Source: a virus
DNA length: 43,096 bases
Virus record (IMG/VR): IMGVR_UViG_3300045988_016231
Span: 1 to 43,096 of that record
Strand: one strand, 5' to 3'
The stretch's first letter is position 1, and each line of letters begins with the position of its first letter. The notes beneath the pieces are model-generated. The model saw nothing but the letters and a program-made list of their open reading frames with translations, was not told the origin of the DNA and ran no database searches. Of the stretch, positions 5,651-42,493 are shown piece by piece. The position numbers were made by a program, and so were the translations under genes.

Positions 5651-6277
5651 TCATGTAATTTGGTTTTCCATAAGCGCTTTCTGGCGCTCTGCGGCAGACA
5701 TTACATACCGGCCATGGTCGTCCTTCTTGTAGATGTCTGCCTTCGTCATAGAGCCACCGCCGATGTTGCCGGGAGGCGTCGCGGTGTCCGCGCCTTTTAC
5801 GGTAGTCGTGCTCACCAAGCCAGAGAAAGTTCCATTGACCAACTCATCCAAGGCGGAGACATCTTTGATTTTGTTGCCGTCCATCTCCAAGGAATTGATC
5901 TCCTCCGAACTGCCCCGGATAGCGATATCAAGGCTCTTGCCGGTAATGCCCTTGCTCTCGTAATAGGCCCTCACGGCCTTTTCCTTGGCTGCTTTGGTCT
6001 CTTTGCTGGCCTGTTCGCTCTTATAGTTGTCGAACTCACCTTTCAGCGCATCATACTTGTCTTTCCACTTTCCGGCGGTTGTTGCACTGTCCTCGGCGGT
6101 CTGCTTTTCGGTTTTCAGGGTTTCGATCTCTTCGAGCTTTTCCGTGTATCGCTCTTTTGCAACGAACTCCCTTCCAACGGAAGAGTTGACGGCCTGCGCC
6201 AGCTTGGCAACGGCATCAGAAGGGATAGATCCATCCTCGCTGATGTACTTTCTGATAATTGCGTCAATGTCGAACAT
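5651..6277 (-). CDS. Scaffolding protein (phage GP20-like)
   Basis: 208 aa. Coiled-coil, K/E-rich: MFDIDAIIRKYISEDGSIP...KERYTEKLEEIETLK. It lies immediately upstream of the capsid gene. Confidence 0.8.
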   Translation of the reverse strand: MFDIDAIIRKYISEDGSIPSDAVAKLAQAVNSSVGREFVAKERYTEKLEEIETLKTEKQTAEDSATTAGKWKDKYDALKGEFDNYKSEQASKETKAAKEKAVRAYYESKGITGKSLDIAIRGSSEEINSLEMDGNKIKDVSALDELVNGTFSGLVSTTTVKGADTATPPGNIGGGSMTKADIYKKDDHGRYVMSAAERQKALMENQIT

Positions 6278-6350
6278 GTTTACATTCCTTTCTCGCTGTT
6301 ACGGGTGCTACCCTAAGAATGTTTGTATAAAATCCGCAAATGCGGGTCTT

Positions 6351-6405
6351 ACCAAAAGAAAAAGCGTGAGCAGATACCGAGATTTACTCGATATCTACCC
6401 ACGCT
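6351..6405 (-). terminator. Strong minus-strand intrinsic terminator inside the head module
   Basis: 14-bp stem (6363-6376 / 6392-6405) that needs two G-U pairs available only in the minus-strand RNA. It is followed by UUUUUCUUUUGG (plus strand 6351-6362). Confidence 0.65.
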
Positions 6406-6449
6406 CGGGCCTTCCGCCTCAACGCTTAGAGGCGGGAGCAATATTTATT

Positions 6450-6632
6450 TCAGAAAAATGATTTTAACCCATTTAAAACCGATGAAATTATATAATCCCA
6501 AATATCTGCAAGCCCTATGTCTGCAAATCGTTCTAACAAGGCATTAAGCGCGCAAAAAATCGCAACCATTATAAGTGCAGAACAGAACAGAGCGAAAGAA
6601 AGCATCGTGACTGCAAATAACAAATTAAGCAT
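6450..6632 (-). CDS. Small hydrophobic (membrane) protein
   Basis: 60 aa MLNLLFAVTMLSFALFCSALIMVAIFCAL... The start overlaps the stop of the upstream small ORF. Confidence 0.4.
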   Translation of the reverse strand: MLNLLFAVTMLSFALFCSALIMVAIFCALNALLERFADIGLADIWDYIISSVLNGLKSFF

Positions 6633-6759
6633 CCCTGTGCTTAACCTCCTCCCGCTTAATATGTATAATTTTAACACCATTTTTCACGGGAATCAACTCT
6701 ATTCTGTCCCCTTTTGCGAGAACTGCCTCAATGGCCCTGATTTGGTTTTCATCCATCAT
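6625..6759 (-). CDS. Small hypothetical protein (44 aa, below the ORF-track cutoff)
   Basis: MMDENQIRAIEAVLAKGDRIELIPVKNGVKIIHIKREEVKHRDA. ATGA overlap with the gp10-like stop. It fills an otherwise empty gap. Confidence 0.4.
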   Translation of the reverse strand: MMDENQIRAIEAVLAKGDRIELIPVKNGVKIIHIKREEVKHRDA

Positions 6760-7193
6760 GCGTTCTCCAAACTATCTTCAAGGATGTCTCTATATTCCTG
6801 TGTATGGTCTTTCGCCGCCGGTGCAATAAACGGCCTTGCCGGGTTTCCTGCTGTCCAATGCCAATTTCCCTCGTCATCCTGATACACCCACGGCGTGGGG
6901 CGACCTCCATCGGCGTATTTGCCGGTTCCTAATTCCACATAGGGGGCGTACTCGACTCCTTGCACACCAACATACACTTCCTCGCCGTCTACAAGATAGG
7001 AAACATGGCTCGCAAGGTTTCCCGTGTCCCACGCCTTTTGGTCTCTCAATGACTTTACAGCGTAATTCACCGCTTTTTGCCCGATAGATTCCAGTCCCCG
7101 CTCTAAAGCGTTTTGAAACGCAGCCAAAATCTCTCCGCTGTTGTCCTCGAACGTATATTCAAAACCATGCGTTGAAAACGTCTGCCTTGCCAT
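6756..7193 (-). CDS. HK97 gp10-family protein
   Basis: 145 aa with the DTGNL...YAPYVELGTG...ARPFIAPA pattern typical of the gp10 family. Confidence 0.7.
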   Translation of the reverse strand: MARQTFSTHGFEYTFEDNSGEILAAFQNALERGLESIGQKAVNYAVKSLRDQKAWDTGNLASHVSYLVDGEEVYVGVQGVEYAPYVELGTGKYADGGRPTPWVYQDDEGNWHWTAGNPARPFIAPAAKDHTQEYRDILEDSLENA

Positions 7194-33253: not shown

Positions 33254-33452
33254 ATATCACACGTCCTTTGTATAAAAATAAGGAGTCCGTGAGGAGGACT
33301 GCGACGTGTACAGCCCTTGTTCCCCACGTCCTCCATGTCTATATTGTCGCATAAAAATTCCCCGCATGGGTGGCATTCATGCGGGAGTTGTGCGGTAGTT
33401 ATGTGGCATTTGTGTGAAATTTGTAACGACATAACTTCGTTACTCTGCATAA

Positions 33453-33480
33453 TTGACTTTCCGGGATAAATGGGTATACT
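33453..33480 (+). promoter_or_regulatory. Promoter of the Panacea/toxin cassette
   Basis: TTGACT, 16-nt spacer, TATACT, located 55 nt upstream of the ATG at 33535. Confidence 0.55.
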
Positions 33481-33534
33481 AAAGATGTATAAATCTAATT
33501 TTGGAAAAAGATGAGGCAGAAAGGAGGAGGTAAT

Positions 33535-34032
33535 ATGTTTCATGCGCAGGATATTGCAAACTACTTTTTGCGGAAGGACAAAGACGGAAGGATGTTCAAC
33601 AAGAAACTGGTTCACAGGAATAGCCGGGATTTCTATGAAGGGAATGCAAGGCTAAACAAATACCTCCACTTGGCACAGAATCTCTTTCTTGCAAAGACCG
33701 GAGATCTGCTTTTTGAGGAAGATCTATATGCGTATGACAACGGGGCTGTTGTTCCAGAAGTACAGGAGAGATACAGTGTTTTGCTCTCCAAAAAATCGGA
33801 ACCAAACTTGCCGGAATATGTTTGTACCTTTCTTGATCATATCTATGCAGCTTTTGAAAACGCTACCCTGGATGAGTTGATCGAACTATCGCACGAAGAT
33901 AATGAATGGATTGATAAAAACAGATTTTACTACAAGTCAGATCAGCGGATGAACTCTCGCGCCCGCGCATCAGAATACAAAGAACAATACAGGGATTTTC
34001 TTCGTGTGCTGGATAGGATGGGCAACAAATGA
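33535..34032 (+). CDS. Panacea (DUF4065 / SocA-like) domain protein, putative antitoxin
   Basis: 165 aa MFHAQDIANYFL...ARLNKYLHLAQNLFLAKTGDLLFEEDLYAYDNGAVVPEV... Shine-Dalgarno AAAGGAGGAGG. ATGA overlap with the downstream ORF. Confidence 0.65.
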   Translation: MFHAQDIANYFLRKDKDGRMFNKKLVHRNSRDFYEGNARLNKYLHLAQNLFLAKTGDLLFEEDLYAYDNGAVVPEVQERYSVLLSKKSEPNLPEYVCTFLDHIYAAFENATLDELIELSHEDNEWIDKNRFYYKSDQRMNSRARASEYKEQYRDFLRVLDRMGNK

Positions 34033-34478
34033 GTATTGAGGTTGGTCAGGTACTTGCCTTAAAAATTAGATTCAACAACAAAGGGGATGCCGCTTCAAGT
34101 CCGCATCCCTATCTTGTTGTCGCTGTTCATGATATGCTTGGTATTATCGAGATCGCACAGATGGATTCTCTTGCTGGTAAAGAACACAAAGCGGCATTTA
34201 AAAGCAACAAAGTTATTTTCTGTAACGATCCGATAGAAACTGTTATTGACCGAGATAGTTATGTTCAACTGGATAACACAATTCAGTTAGAAAATTTTTC
34301 TGGTATTGAGGGATTTCGTCGGCAGACTGATAAATTAAGCAAAGAAAAATTAGAAGATGTTTTGAACGCTTATCGGAACTATCATGAAGTACATGAGATT
34401 GATGAAATGAAAAACGTCTACATGGACAAAAATGAGATTTTGAGTTTAAATAAACGATACAGAAAGGAGCCGGATTAA
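34029..34478 (+). CDS. Putative toxin (MazF/PemK-like SH3-barrel pattern, otherwise unassigned)
   Basis: 149 aa. GQVLALKIRF...PHPYLVVAV...IIEIAQMDS...DSYVQLDNTIQL. Translationally coupled to the Panacea gene. Confidence 0.45.
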   Translation: MSIEVGQVLALKIRFNNKGDAASSPHPYLVVAVHDMLGIIEIAQMDSLAGKEHKAAFKSNKVIFCNDPIETVIDRDSYVQLDNTIQLENFSGIEGFRRQTDKLSKEKLEDVLNAYRNYHEVHEIDEMKNVYMDKNEILSLNKRYRKEPD

Positions 34479-34735
34479 CCCCCGACTCCTTTTAATTTTG
34501 TTATTCTACTTGCCGCCCGTTCCACTTCATCCAGTATGTACGTGATATGTCTGGATACTGTGGACCTTTCCCAGCCCAACTCAGCAGCAATATCAATCTG
34601 TGGTTTCTTCTCCACAATATACCGTCGGGCTATCAGGTCATCATCCCGGTCAAGTGCTGCTTCATATATTGCCTTCTCTAACTCTGAGCGCAAGAGCTTG
34701 TCCAGCTGGTCAGGTAGCTTTACTCTTGCGCTCAT
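34475..34735 (-). CDS. Sigma-70 region-4-like (DUF1492/ArpU-like) transcription regulator
   Basis: 86 aa ...LIARRYIVEKKPQIDIAAELGWERSTVSRHITYILDEV... Confidence 0.55.
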   Translation of the reverse strand: MSARVKLPDQLDKLLRSELEKAIYEAALDRDDDLIARRYIVEKKPQIDIAAELGWERSTVSRHITYILDEVERAASRITKLKGVGG

Positions 34736-34747
34736 TTGCTCACGTCC

Positions 34748-35560
34748 TTATCTTTTGATTGCCGCCGCTACGGTGGCCAGCTCCTGCCTCGTAACAAATC
34801 CTTGGGGCCTTTCAATGGTCCCTCCAACATCGGTCATTACTCCTGCGTCAATAGCCTCCTGGATATACGGCTTTGCCCAATCAGAGGCCGGTTGATTGTT
34901 CCGTCTAGCCAGCCAGTTTTCCATCATGGTATCAAACTGTTCCTGTGTCATCTCATCCTCTCCTTCCATCCATCGGGCCACATCCGCCCGGAAATCATCC
35001 ATGGTTTTGCCGAATTTAGGGAACCAGTGAAGGACATCCCCGTGGTTACTGGCGATCCCTCTGCGGTAGCCCTCCTGATGGCAGATTACCACTCCGTCAG
35101 CCAACGGGTCCAGGTTATACTCCTTGCAGAGATAGGCTGTCAGCTCCACGGCCTCCTGGTACACCGCCTCAAAATAGCTGACATCCTCCAGGCCGTCCTC
35201 GCAGATTTCAAAAGAAATGTGGGTATCATTTGCACTGCCGTTCTTTCCTCGGCCACAGTGCCAGCCACGGCGATTCCATGGAAGGGTCTGCACCGTACCC
35301 ACCGATTCGTCTGCAAAGAGGCCCACAAAGGCATGGGCGCACTTATTCAGCTTCTTATCAAATTTTGCCTTGTATTCTGTATTAGTCTGGTCCCAGTGGT
35401 TGCCATAGGTGTTTCGGCCTATCTCCTCATCTCCGGGCACATAGCGGGCCACAGAGGGGTTATTGGCTCCGGTCGAGTGTACCATTACCCCCTGTGGCCG
35501 GATGGTCCTCCCGGCCCTGTAACAGTCGTTCTTGGTCAAATACTGTTTTCGTAATCTCAT
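34748..35560 (-). CDS. Endolysin: N-acetylmuramoyl-L-alanine amidase (Amidase_2/PGRP type) with a C-terminal SLH-like module
   Basis: 270 aa ...GVMVHSTGANNP...WNRRGWHCG... The C-terminus ASDWAKPYIQEAIDAGVMTD...GFVTRQELATVAAAI resembles one SLH repeat. Confidence 0.8.
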   Translation of the reverse strand: MRLRKQYLTKNDCYRAGRTIRPQGVMVHSTGANNPSVARYVPGDEEIGRNTYGNHWDQTNTEYKAKFDKKLNKCAHAFVGLFADESVGTVQTLPWNRRGWHCGRGKNGSANDTHISFEICEDGLEDVSYFEAVYQEAVELTAYLCKEYNLDPLADGVVICHQEGYRRGIASNHGDVLHWFPKFGKTMDDFRADVARWMEGEDEMTQEQFDTMMENWLARRNNQPASDWAKPYIQEAIDAGVMTDVGGTIERPQGFVTRQELATVAAAIKR

Positions 35561-35621: not shown

Positions 35622-35891
35622 ATGCATGATTACAAATTGCTTTGCCACTTTTTGAGGCAGGCAGAAACTGCTTTCAGCCTATCAGTGGACACAAACCAGG
35701 AATTTTCTGCACTAGCAGACAAGTTCGAGTCCGGCAACGCCACAAACGAAGACCGGGAAATGGCCCTCAGAATCCTGACAAATGCCAGGGAGAACTTTTC
35801 CTCCATGCCGGACAGTGAGGAGAAAATGACTGGGATGTTAGAGACCGCCCTGATTATTCAACAGCTAAATATGGAGCTAAAGGCACCCTGA
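35622..35891 (+). CDS. Hypothetical helical protein (opposite-strand moron inside the lysis region)
   Basis: 89-aa ORF with its own promoter and terminator. Confidence 0.55.
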   Translation: MHDYKLLCHFLRQAETAFSLSVDTNQEFSALADKFESGNATNEDREMALRILTNARENFSSMPDSEEKMTGMLETALIIQQLNMELKAP

Positions 35892-39222: not shown

Positions 39223-40385
39223 CAGCTAATCACTCCTTCCGCTTTCATATTTCCATATAGTAGCAGATACCATGTGGCTACCTGCCAATTCTTCCATTCA
39301 GTATTCATGGCATCCAGTTCCGCCCAGTTTCTTCCTAGATTACTACCCGCACTTGGCAAGGGGTTATATCCACTCCAAAAGGTGTACGCATTGGACCGCT
39401 TGAAGGCACGAACCACCTGCTCGATGGTCAACCGAATATCTATTAGTATCTGCTCAATATTGTTGGCCTCGATATACGTCAACAGTTCCATGCTCTCCGG
39501 TGCCTCTGGCGTAGTGGCCAACAGTTCAATGGTAGAGCGCAGCGCGGAAACATTCGCAAGATATCTCTCCATCAGATCAACGGTTGGAATATCATCTTCA
39601 TACCAGGTGTACGGATCTTTTTCCTCGCCGGGTTCGGGTTCTAGTTGTGGACCTGCAACAAATGAGCCTGTCCCGGAATTTCGATAGAATGTCTTACTGA
39701 CTTCATCCCGTAAGCAGGCTATTCCGTCTCCATCCAGTGCTGGCCGAAAATCATGGATTAGGGTGTCGTTATCATAGACCTGACAACGATAAAGCTTGGC
39801 GGACAGTTTTCTCTCATCTACCTCCCCCCCCGAATTGAGCGCCAAAAGGCAGAGGTTATACGAACAGTTAAATGATGCCGCTCCACTGGTAATAGTCGTA
39901 TCTCCAAATTTGCAGACGTTTTTGTTTTTGTCTATAACAACGTGGGACAAAACTTTTGATACCGTAGTTTCTGTTCCAGTCGTATTAAAATCAGACCGAA
40001 TCGAACTAGCAGACATCTCCCACAACACAAAGCTACCTACTCCATTTGCTGTACGCGCGCCAAAGAAGGGGTAAACGCCGCCTTTTAATGCCTCAACCTC
40101 CATAACGACCCGGCTGTTATTCGTTGGTTTATGCCCGGTGTCGATATACTGAGTCCCGCTGCTTTCAATGTACTCTAAGTAGGTGACACCCTGATTCCCA
40201 CCATGGGGTATCTCTATCCTCTGATAGCCCGTGCTGTAACCGTACTGACGGAACTGTTGGTCCAATTCCTCCATCGCCGCCGTTACTCGATTCAGGTCTG
40301 TGGCGTTGTAGGTGCCCTTGCTGTTTCTGGCGTCCACATCATTTTGATTTCTATTCGTTACAAGGGTCAAAAAATCAAAACTCAT
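39222..40385 (-). CDS. Tail fibre / baseplate-associated protein
   Basis: 387 aa MSFDFLTLVTNRNQNDVDARNSKGTYNATDLNRVTAAMEEL... ATGA overlap with the upstream gene. Confidence 0.55.
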   Translation of the reverse strand: MSFDFLTLVTNRNQNDVDARNSKGTYNATDLNRVTAAMEELDQQFRQYGYSTGYQRIEIPHGGNQGVTYLEYIESSGTQYIDTGHKPTNNSRVVMEVEALKGGVYPFFGARTANGVGSFVLWEMSASSIRSDFNTTGTETTVSKVLSHVVIDKNKNVCKFGDTTITSGAASFNCSYNLCLLALNSGGEVDERKLSAKLYRCQVYDNDTLIHDFRPALDGDGIACLRDEVSKTFYRNSGTGSFVAGPQLEPEPGEEKDPYTWYEDDIPTVDLMERYLANVSALRSTIELLATTPEAPESMELLTYIEANNIEQILIDIRLTIEQVVRAFKRSNAYTFWSGYNPLPSAGSNLGRNWAELDAMNTEWKNWQVATWYLLLYGNMKAEGVIS

Positions 40386-42493
40386 GTTTCCTCCTTGTCC
40401 CAATAGATCACTACACAGCCTGTCGCTCCAGCCTTTCCCGGCATACCTTCTCCTGGATAATTGTCAATCACCATTTTTGACGACGTAGAACCATCAGAAT
40501 TGGTGGTGGTTTTTCGGTGTTTATTCCCTTTAATACCTCCAGCGCCTCCGGCTCCCCCATCGCCCGAACCAGTTACAGGATTTTGCACTCCAGTTCTCGC
40601 AAAGCTGTCACCACTTGCAATATCAGTATAGCCATACTCAAATCTTGACCCATCAGCACTGCTATACTGCCCAAAAATGGTATCTTCATCAATTTGAATG
40701 TTGAATTGCTGTTGAGGGTTAATAGACACAGTCCCCGCCCAAACAAGGGCGCCAAGGCCGTCCTGTCCATCCTGGCCCGCTTCATCCCAATTACCATCTG
40801 TTCCGGCAGTTCCATTTCCGCCCTTTCCTACCAGAATCAATCGGAGTTTCGTAGCTCCTTCTGGTACAGTCCAAGATCCACTTTGTGTGATCACCGCCCG
40901 GTTCTGGAACAGGAAAGAACCATCAGCCTGGAGCAGAATACTTGTGCAATCCTTCAATACTCCATCTTTGAGAGATAGATCTTGCTGTATGCGGCGGGCC
41001 GTAGTGGCGCTGCTCTCATTCAGCCATACAGTGTCTACATCTCCAATTTCAGAAGTCATATCGCCACGACCGACGATTTCAAGCCTATTCCCACCATAGC
41101 ATGATAAAATCAACTTAGCGGCTGTCAGCGCATCACCTTTTGTTTTAATGAACGGATTTTGGACAGACTTTGTTTCGCTAGATGCTGTAGAGTTACCGGA
41201 CACAATATATTGTGTGTTGTTTCCATCGTTCAATGTAAAAATGATTGCCGCTATGTCGTTGTTGGCCTTCATTACCGGATAACTCTGTAAGTTGTCCAAC
41301 GTCAACTTGTTCCCTTGGCTCCAAAGCGGCTCTGCTGCCAGATAGCCAGTCTCCGCGTCCGCTCGTGGCCATGTTCCCGTCGCCATACAGACGTACCGCA
41401 GAAGGTCACCGCACTTCATTCCAACAACATCAGATGAAGACCGAACCACGACCGGCTTGTCCGCATAGTTCGGATCTACAGTATAAAGAGTTTCAAAATT
41501 TGTCCCTAGCTGGGCCACAAGAGCTGCTATCCACCCTTTCAACGTGGTTGGGAGGGCTTCCGGTGGTATAAATTCTCTGGATTGCAGCAGTCCAATAATG
41601 TCCACCAAGTCCCATTGCATAGTAAGTCCATTATCCCCTGTTTTCCATCCGCCGGAATACTGATAGAATATTCCTAACCGCTTATATTCATCTGTCCCAT
41701 CCTCCAGCCTGACGGCCATGGAAACATCAATACCCTGCCGTTCTTCAATAGATTGAAATACGCCCTCTTTGCTTCTGGGCTCAAACCTTCGATCCAGGTT
41801 ATCCATGCGTATCGTACAAGTCCCATAAGGCAGCGCCATACAGGACACATCTCCCTGATGTTTAAGAGAAAACGACGCAATAATATTTCCGTCCCATTCC
41901 TCATAAACTCCAGGAAGTATTTCCGCAAATCTCGCCCTTCTTCCTGGCTTGCTCCACTTACTTACTGTAACCCTAATAGCATCGGGATTGTACACTGTAA
42001 ATCCTGTTAGGGATACGCTCCTCTCCATATTGCCTTTGAAGCTCTTTGAGTGATAGGTTGTGCCCCCCTGCTTGATCTCCACTGTAAAATCTTCCGCTAC
42101 ACCATCCCAATCATCTGACGGGAAATAGATGGAGCATGCCTGAAGAATGGACACATTGGAAAAGGTCTCTTCCGCCCAAACAGCCGGGGTGAATGTACCA
42201 TCTTCTGCCGATAGTGGATCTAATACAAGTCCAATCTCTCCATTTACGCCCTGTTCAGGAATCAGTTTAAATTGACCATCCAGTACCCAGCGATTTTGTT
42301 CCAGTGTTGCGTATGGTTCAAGGACAAATATCTTGTTGTAAGCCTGTTCTCTCTTTGAAAATTGCATCTCCCCACTGCTACTGATTGTGCCATATATAAT
42401 GTCCGGGTCGATAATGTCAATGATTGCTTTAATGAAAATCTGGCGTGCGTCCGCCACAATCGCCTTTTTGTAGCCCTCCGTGCTCTCAATCAC
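40382..42493 (-). CDS. Tail tip (Tal-like) protein with a C-terminal glycine-rich domain
   Basis: 703 aa. Second gene after the tape measure. C-terminal GKGGNGTAGTDGNWDEAGQDGQDG...GSGDGGAGGAGGIKG...GEGMPGKAGATG. Confidence 0.6.
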   Translation of the reverse strand: MIESTEGYKKAIVADARQIFIKAIIDIIDPDIIYGTISSSGEMQFSKREQAYNKIFVLEPYATLEQNRWVLDGQFKLIPEQGVNGEIGLVLDPLSAEDGTFTPAVWAEETFSNVSILQACSIYFPSDDWDGVAEDFTVEIKQGGTTYHSKSFKGNMERSVSLTGFTVYNPDAIRVTVSKWSKPGRRARFAEILPGVYEEWDGNIIASFSLKHQGDVSCMALPYGTCTIRMDNLDRRFEPRSKEGVFQSIEERQGIDVSMAVRLEDGTDEYKRLGIFYQYSGGWKTGDNGLTMQWDLVDIIGLLQSREFIPPEALPTTLKGWIAALVAQLGTNFETLYTVDPNYADKPVVVRSSSDVVGMKCGDLLRYVCMATGTWPRADAETGYLAAEPLWSQGNKLTLDNLQSYPVMKANNDIAAIIFTLNDGNNTQYIVSGNSTASSETKSVQNPFIKTKGDALTAAKLILSCYGGNRLEIVGRGDMTSEIGDVDTVWLNESSATTARRIQQDLSLKDGVLKDCTSILLQADGSFLFQNRAVITQSGSWTVPEGATKLRLILVGKGGNGTAGTDGNWDEAGQDGQDGLGALVWAGTVSINPQQQFNIQIDEDTIFGQYSSADGSRFEYGYTDIASGDSFARTGVQNPVTGSGDGGAGGAGGIKGNKHRKTTTNSDGSTSSKMVIDNYPGEGMPGKAGATGCVVIYWDKEET

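Follow-up and report, generated by a model that had tools for sequence, protein, structure and literature searches.

The 43,096-nucleotide (nt) viral sequence analysed here (IMG/VR record IMGVR_UViG_3300045988_016231, positions 1–43,096; hereafter the window) carries, at 33453–34478 on the plus strand, a compact cassette in which panA, a gene for a stand-alone Panacea-domain protein, is followed by panT, a gene for a predicted toxin with a divergent MazF/PemK fold. We consider it likely that this pair is a type II toxin–antitoxin module of the PanAT kind, with an RNA-cutting MazF-like toxin, carried by a temperate phage as a moron expressed in the lysogen. The cassette has a promoter and a terminator of its own around two translationally coupled genes, and runs antisense to the phage late genes. 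It was acquired as an insertion: close relatives of the phage do not have it, and in some of them other toxin–antitoxin cassettes replace it.

The two open reading frames (ORFs) have the coordinates and lengths given in a first-pass annotation made from the sequence alone. panA occupies 33535–34032 (165 amino acids (aa)) and panT 34029–34478 (149 aa), the two overlapping in an ATGA at 34029–34032, and the peptide strings quoted in that annotation are present in the translations. The ribosome-binding site of panA, AAAGGAGGAGG, read from the sequence at 33520–33530 (plus strand), lies 5 nt before the ORF. A longer, 173-aa PanA beginning at ATG 33511 was dropped in favour of the start at 33535, the one used by homologues, because a diverged copy of the cassette at locus L138 (toxin 84% identical to that of the window) has the identical ribosome-binding site and the identical MFHAQ start.

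PanA, the predicted antitoxin, matches Pfam PF13274 (SocA_Panacea, also known as DUF4065/SocA-like) with an E value of 3.9e-10 and 41.1 bits, above the gathering score of 25.7, which upholds the earlier assignment to the Panacea domain. The match spans residues 40–125 and profile positions 1–112 of 113. Conservation extends along the whole protein, including the C-terminal residues 126–160 outside the Pfam domain (50 distinct partner sequences), and PanA also matches phrog_1281 (E 2e-15). A sequence-only search of the Protein Data Bank (PDB) returned matches at chance level for PanA, and NCBIfam gave nothing useful for either protein of the pair. Membership of the SocA domain family raises a SocAB-like, type VI arrangement, in which PanA would hand the toxin over to ClpXP as a protease adaptor and not sequester it. 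We give this reading hardly any weight. PanA scores 15.3 bits against the NCBIfam SocA equivalog NF047745, far short of the cut-off of 190, and by this measure falls outside the SocA orthologs; its partner does not resemble SocB, and all PanAT pairs tested formed stable complexes (PMC8832971).

PanT has no match in Pfam, NCBIfam or PADLOC, and matches phrog_13386, a family with no function assigned (E 6.5e-12). Its AlphaFold 2 model, built on a 51-sequence alignment, has a predicted local distance difference test (pLDDT) score of 91 and a predicted template modelling (TM) score of 0.86, and shows a MazF/PemK fold, an SH3-like barrel with a C-terminal helix. In a Foldseek search with this model, the top 12 PDB matches were all MazF, EndoA or MoxT structures, with E values of 1e-4 to 8e-4, probability 1.00 and target-normalised TM scores of 0.63–0.71; they comprise MazF of S. 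aureus, MoxT of B. anthracis, MazF of M. tuberculosis (5hk0, titled MazF-mt3), YdcE/EndoA of B. subtilis and MazF of E. coli. Kid and CcdB structures rank behind these. The best viral structural matches are PemK-like phage proteins. The barrel assignment made by eye in the first-pass annotation, which named MazF, PemK and CcdB together, thus agrees with the model. Relatives of PanT point the same way, as six of the 51 close relatives and two of the 27 distant ones match the PemK_toxin profile PF02452 (best E 2.2e-5), the relative P0102 has a precomputed match to it, and one family member is named 'PemK-like, MazF-like toxin' in UniRef. A word-index search found 115 homologues of PanT at 47–99% identity, and an exhaustive profile search of 1.84 billion representatives gave 213 clusters at 50% identity, mostly from animal-gut Firmicutes. 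The family is small, since there are only 213 clusters among so many representatives.

The model also revises the view of the PanT C terminus. A helical extension of about 45 aa had been noted earlier; an addition to the MazF core does exist, but it amounts to about 28 aa (a strand at 129–132, a helix at 134–140 and a disordered tail), because the helix at 105–121 aligns with the normal MazF C-terminal helix in an hhalign comparison with EndoA. Weak matches of the C-terminal part to YbeY and to a glycosyltransferase lay far under the cut-offs and were taken as chance.

The most distinctive feature of the family lies at the active site. The catalytic residues of MazF are Arg25 and Thr48, and natural Lys and Ser variants stay active (PMC7354611). 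When a broader alignment of the family (A3) was compared by hhalign with B. subtilis EndoA, whose sequence had been checked against PDB 4me7, His26 of PanT aligned with Arg25 of EndoA (E 0.0064); a profile of the close family compared with the single EndoA sequence was not significant. In the column of the catalytic arginine, 158 of the 176 full-length family members have His and 17 have Arg. Distant members of the family read 'RPFLVI ... LNVSSxxGKE', and the clade of the window reads 'HPYLVV ... IAQxDSLxGKE'. The column of Ser47 is serine in 162 of the 176; Ser47 ends the strand matching MazF beta-3 in the model, yet hhalign puts EndoA T48 two residues later. From these alignments, the PanT family reads as a branch of the MazF superfamily in which His replaces the catalytic Arg, and we infer that His26 may do the same job as the MazF arginine.

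PanT could instead be a gyrase poison like CcdB, or a different protein without nuclease activity built on that SH3-like barrel. The MazF catalytic Arg is not in the window protein, and CcdB structures match the model too (E 0.035 and weaker, target-normalised TM scores 0.61–0.68). We regard this reading as very improbable: MazF-type structures outscore CcdB about 100-fold, no match to a CcdB family was obtained, members of the sister clade retain the MazF 'RP' motif in the same column, and relatives match PemK_toxin. Moreover, two other MazF-fold toxins paired with PanA inhibit translation (PMC8832971).

The pairing of the two genes extends well beyond this phage. We compared 60 loci with a PanT homologue, of which 50 come from species-representative genomes, 2 are viral and 8 come from metagenome contigs. 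In 57 of them a PanA homologue directly precedes the toxin gene in the same orientation, overlapping it slightly or separated from it by a short gap. Of the three unpaired loci, one lies at a contig end and two have orphan toxin genes truncated at the N terminus, so that every intact PanT homologue retaining upstream DNA has PanA before it. Similarity scores of the two proteins co-vary (rho 0.72, n = 40), and PanA and PanT are inherited together across many genomes. The hosts include Lachnospiraceae, Oscillospiraceae, Bacilli metagenome-assembled genomes, Negativicutes, Treponema, Bacteroidales and a member of the Sutterellaceae; most family members are chromosomal, outside prophages. Neighbouring genes vary from locus to locus and include genes of amino-acid or sugar metabolism, a methyltransferase with an AAA_15 ATPase, and an extra helix–turn–helix (HTH) gene. 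The orphan truncated toxins, without PanA, are at L046 (3965–4357) and L049 (3989–4387), and in L047, L051, L056 and L057 the toxin gene is split into two ORFs, a kind of decay that is expected if the gene is harmful. Unrelated genomic contexts together with split toxin genes are typical of a mobile toxin–antitoxin module.

These loci also bear on the idea that the change from Arg to His inactivated the toxin, the conserved pair now serving some other, non-toxic role. The canonical Arg is indeed lost, the toxicity of PanT is a prediction, and ten of the systems that Ernits et al. tested were non-toxic in E. coli (PMC10440598). However, His26 in 158 of 176 members and some 30 other nearly invariant polar residues argue for purifying selection on an active site, and a harmless protein would hardly account for both the decayed toxin copies and the lack of any intact toxin gene with upstream DNA but no PanA. 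We therefore hold an inactive pair to be improbable.

Two further arrangements were seen among the same loci. L044 has a second, much more divergent PanA/PanT-like pair at 6140–7029, 2 kb downstream of the first. L001–L004, of a single chromosomal lineage, have a three-gene unit, with a 102-aa HTH_3/MqsA-like gene placed directly behind the toxin gene (for example, L001 4446–4754).

A Panacea antitoxin with a MazF-fold toxin has been described as a kind, and the window pair does not define a kind of its own. Kurata et al. 2022 (PNAS) defined PanAT, in which PanA neutralises its toxins, and showed stable complexes for five pairs (PMC8832971). Two MazF-fold PanT proteins were validated in that work, from Pseudomonas moraviensis (cluster T6) and Bifidobacterium ruminantium (cluster T25). 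Both are toxic, neutralised by PanA and inhibit translation, and PanA and the toxin of P. moraviensis were shown to form a stable complex; more MazF-fold clusters (T5, T9 and T23) appear in Dataset S1 (PMC8832971). Ernits et al. 2023 found MazF/PemK among the commonest toxin folds in the network, and stand-alone Panacea domains neutralise toxins directly (PMC10440598). As in the window, the validated MazF-fold systems have the Panacea antitoxin upstream and the toxin downstream, with overlaps of 1, 4 or 8 nt, and the P. moraviensis and B. ruminantium toxins likewise have no conserved-domain match and are recognised by profile or fold only. The window toxin differs from the validated ones in belonging to another sequence cluster, in having His for the catalytic Arg and in its approximately 28 extra C-terminal residues.

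The closest described pair comes from cluster T23, which includes YP_009277403.1 ('SocA family protein') and YP_009277404.1 ('xkdS-like protein') of Clostridium phage phiCTC2B (PMC8832971). The phiCTC2B toxin matches the PanT family profile with an hhalign probability of 94.9% (E 4.2e-8), and its PanA is 31% identical to that of the window (BLASTP E 6e-16). Similar to the window pair, the phiCTC2B pair directly follows the lysis region (XhlA-like, holin and endolysin genes), and attR and the integrase come after it. It is on the lysis-gene strand, whereas the window pair is antisense, and its toxin keeps Arg in the catalytic column ('RT...SS' motif), whereas the window pair is His-type. T23 also lists a pair from Lachnospiraceae bacterium 3-2 with a 3-nt gap (PMC8832971), and locus L011, with a toxin 63% identical to that of the window, has the same geometry. 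From these profile and sequence matches, we infer that the window family belongs to T23. The suggestion of the first-pass annotation that the toxin partner may be undescribed is weakened, as MazF-fold PanT proteins are described as a kind (PMC8832971) and the family is homologous to the phiCTC2B pair.

Relative to MazEF, PemIK and Kid–Kis, the window pair shares the toxin fold, the position of a basic or His residue (and perhaps that of a Ser, going by the strand ends of the model), the C-terminal helix and the bicistron with the antitoxin first. It differs in that its antitoxin is a Panacea-domain protein, MazE and PemI being of AbrB or ribbon–helix–helix type, and in that its toxin, unlike canonical MazF/PemK, fails PF02452 and has His for Arg25. 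A type III system of the ToxIN/CptIN sort was considered and rejected. CptN and ToxN are weak fold matches. The sole tandem array (five 11-nt units) lies upstream of the promoter, outside the transcript of the operon, an Rfam search yielded no antitoxin RNA, and the cassette carries a gene for a protein antitoxin.

The signals around the two genes delimit a self-contained unit. A sigma-70-type promoter, TTGACT-16-TATACT, is present at 33453–33480 on the plus strand, matching the consensus at 10 of 12 positions in our scan. L138 retains TTGACT-16-TATAAT at the equivalent position, with the same -35 box and spacing. At the other end, the TTAA at 34475–34478 contains the stop codons of both panT and a convergent 86-aa gene, as had been noticed in the first-pass annotation, and a bidirectional hairpin covers both stops (34462–34505, RNA fold, with a T-run 3′ on the plus strand). 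For the hairpin at 34462–34493 the folding energy is -14.7 kcal/mol (z -4.9) as plus-strand RNA and -18.7 kcal/mol (z -4.7) as minus-strand RNA, and a terminator scan also picked up its minus-strand side. It serves as the cassette terminator and marks the 3′ recombination joint. The cassette is AT-richer than its surroundings, as stated before, with a GC content of 0.37–0.42 against 0.52–0.57 on either side.

Comparison with related phages shows what the site looks like without the cassette. Ten close IMG/VR relatives have the endolysin, the HTH gene and then genes of 67 aa and 130 aa, with about 170 bp in place of the 1.2 kb of the window, which bears out the earlier view of a self-contained, recently acquired cassette. 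Homology to the relatives ends at about 33371–33418 on the left and about 34440–34629 on the right, and by these breakpoints and its GC content the low-GC DNA specific to the cassette, absent from related phages, spans 33419–34440 (plus strand). As the promoter lies inside the segment that differs between cassettes, it arrived with the cassette. A 10-nt sequence found at both ends of the coding block, CAGAAAGGAG, was rejected as a target-site duplication, being RBS-like (ribosome-binding-site-like) or terminator-stem sequence and leaving the promoter segment outside.

The relatives also show other contents after the endolysin. In L071 the flanks are as in the window, including the terminator hairpin, and between them (6042–7188) are HicA, HicB and a 131-aa ORF, likewise antisense. 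The region after the endolysin holds a different PanA with a 112-aa hydrophobic protein in L070 (6671–7457), and an integrase with a dCTP-deaminase-like gene in L072 (6331–8424). A site that is empty or holds PanAT, HicAB or other genes is one that exchanges small cassettes. The final residues of the window toxin (...KEPD stop; 34440–34478) and of the unrelated 131-aa ORF of L071 (6042–6073) are encoded by the same terminator sequence. The C-terminal tail of the toxin is a by-product of the recombination joint, its last eight residues coming from resident phage sequence. As with P2/P4 hot spots and lambdoid morons beside lysis genes, this is a fixed site, empty or holding varied small self-transcribed cassettes; it differs from prophage hot spots in that the swap joint is a shared bidirectional terminator and the known contents are mainly toxin–antitoxin pairs. 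This terminator at the junction and the His-for-Arg replacement are two modest novelties.

The surrounding genes confirm that the cassette stands antisense between lysis genes and accessory and integrase genes. On the minus strand, the flanking order includes an XhlA/hemolysin-like gene, a holin, the endolysin, the 86-aa HTH gene and several genes with no assigned function. The HTH gene (34475–34735, minus strand), convergent with panT, resembles sigma-70 region 4 in matches that are both below cut-offs (PF04545 E 3.9e-4, TIGR02937 E 4.9e-5). In the relatives it adjoins the endolysin, and its 3′ half is mosaic, with 56–65% identity in most and 95% in L071. The endolysin, an amidase, lies at 34748–35560 on the minus strand (phrog_15001, E 2.9e-54; Amidase_2 in relatives). 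Between the endolysin and holin is an 89-aa antisense ORF (35622–35891, plus strand) that has a gene call in each of the five related contigs. The integrase gene is about 4.4 kb to the left of the cassette, near the prophage end. An identical toxin occurs on many gut-metagenome contigs, at the same site every time, and the phage integrates, because one of the contigs with the identical toxin is bacterial, with a length of 175 kb. GenBank phage records yielded no close DNA relative; links to Flavonifractor phages are at the protein level only, such as a 703-aa protein at the far right of the window (40382–42493, minus strand) that is 66% identical to a protein of Flavonifractor phage Chenonceau. 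The host is probably a member of the gut Clostridia related to Flavonifractor.

Several further elements lie at the left border of the cassette. A hairpin with a T-run is at 33360–33386 on the minus strand (-14.8 kcal/mol, z -3.1); in cassette-free relatives it falls within the short gap after the HTH gene, where matching DNA begins about 50 nt past that gene. It is overlapped by an array of five 11-nt units (consensus GTGGCATTTGT; 33370–33424), one per helical turn, directly upstream of the cassette promoter, which could be a regulator-binding array. The flank common to relatives contains the RNA motif RAGATH-31 (Rfam RF03101) at 33282–33334 on the minus strand, which scores 75.2 bits (gathering score 71.8; E 2.6e-15). 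It lies shortly before the 67-aa gene and some 40 nt away from the left border. A full-text literature search found no paper on this motif.

How would the cassette act? PanA would bind PanT directly and hold it inert. If PanA were lost or displaced, PanT would cut RNA, with His26 and Ser47 standing in for the Arg/Thr catalytic pair of MazF, and translation and growth would stop. An RNase has precedent here, as MazF-fold toxins paired with PanA are toxic, neutralised by direct binding, and inhibit translation (PMC8832971). Transcription of the cassette is independent of the lytic genes, which makes expression in the lysogen probable. The most likely benefit would be protection of the host and the prophage by aborting infection by other phages, with prophage retention as the alternative.

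A number of observations weigh against this interpretation. The window PanT is without the canonical catalytic Arg of MazF (R25 in EndoA, R29 in E. coli MazF, within a G-x-R-P motif), and the Ser/Thr equivalence of Ser47 and T48 relies on strand ends in the model. PF02452 does not match the window PanT at E values up to 1, only some of its relatives doing so, and sequence-only PDB searches with PanT, the family profile and P0102 gave chance-level matches, that with the family profile finding no MazF. Cluster T23 (pT24) is marked 'notest' in the data of Kurata et al. (PMC8832971). The promoter by itself is not above chance, with 2 promoter-like sites against 3.4 expected in shuffled sequence, although L138 retains its -35 box and spacing. 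Finally, no PADLOC model matches PanA or PanT, and an anti-phage role thus comes from context only.

This last point also favours prophage addiction, in which the same PanA and MazF-like RNase mechanism would kill cells that lose the prophage and so stabilise it. Type II modules carried by mobile elements classically behave in this way, and the cassette lies close to the integrase gene, near the prophage end. But the site also holds other small cassettes, including the one with the dCTP-deaminase-like gene, and in this resembles prophage defence hot spots, and with most of the family on chromosomes there is little for addiction to act on. Addiction is a possibility to be taken seriously, although a doubtful one, and we find a role in abortive infection or exclusion somewhat more likely.

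Taken together, the His-type clade (HP...DS, not RP...SS/T) and its conserved extra C-terminal strand and helix might represent a functionally distinct offshoot of MazF, with His-based catalysis or another target, for instance one particular site in tRNA or rRNA, or a substrate other than RNA. PanA might be a sensor of infecting phage, and the terminator-bounded post-lysis site a dedicated exchange point for defence cassettes in gut Clostridia prophages. We offer this combined reading as speculation and think it unlikely as a whole.

The findings leave the current understanding of PanAT and MazF systems unchanged; a small follow-up would be worthwhile for the His-for-Arg site, for the C-terminal addition, which is conserved, and for the swap site with its terminator boundary. 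The conserved replacement of Arg by His at the MazF catalytic position poses a simple question of enzymology. The analysis gives an annotation to a small protein family left unnamed by Pfam, NCBIfam and PADLOC, as a divergent MazF branch paired with PanA. It also provides a clean natural case of cassette swapping at one prophage site, where the same flanks are empty or enclose PanAT or HicAB and one more relative carries a different PanA pair in that region, and this site could be used to study the trade of toxin–antitoxin and defence genes among gut prophages.

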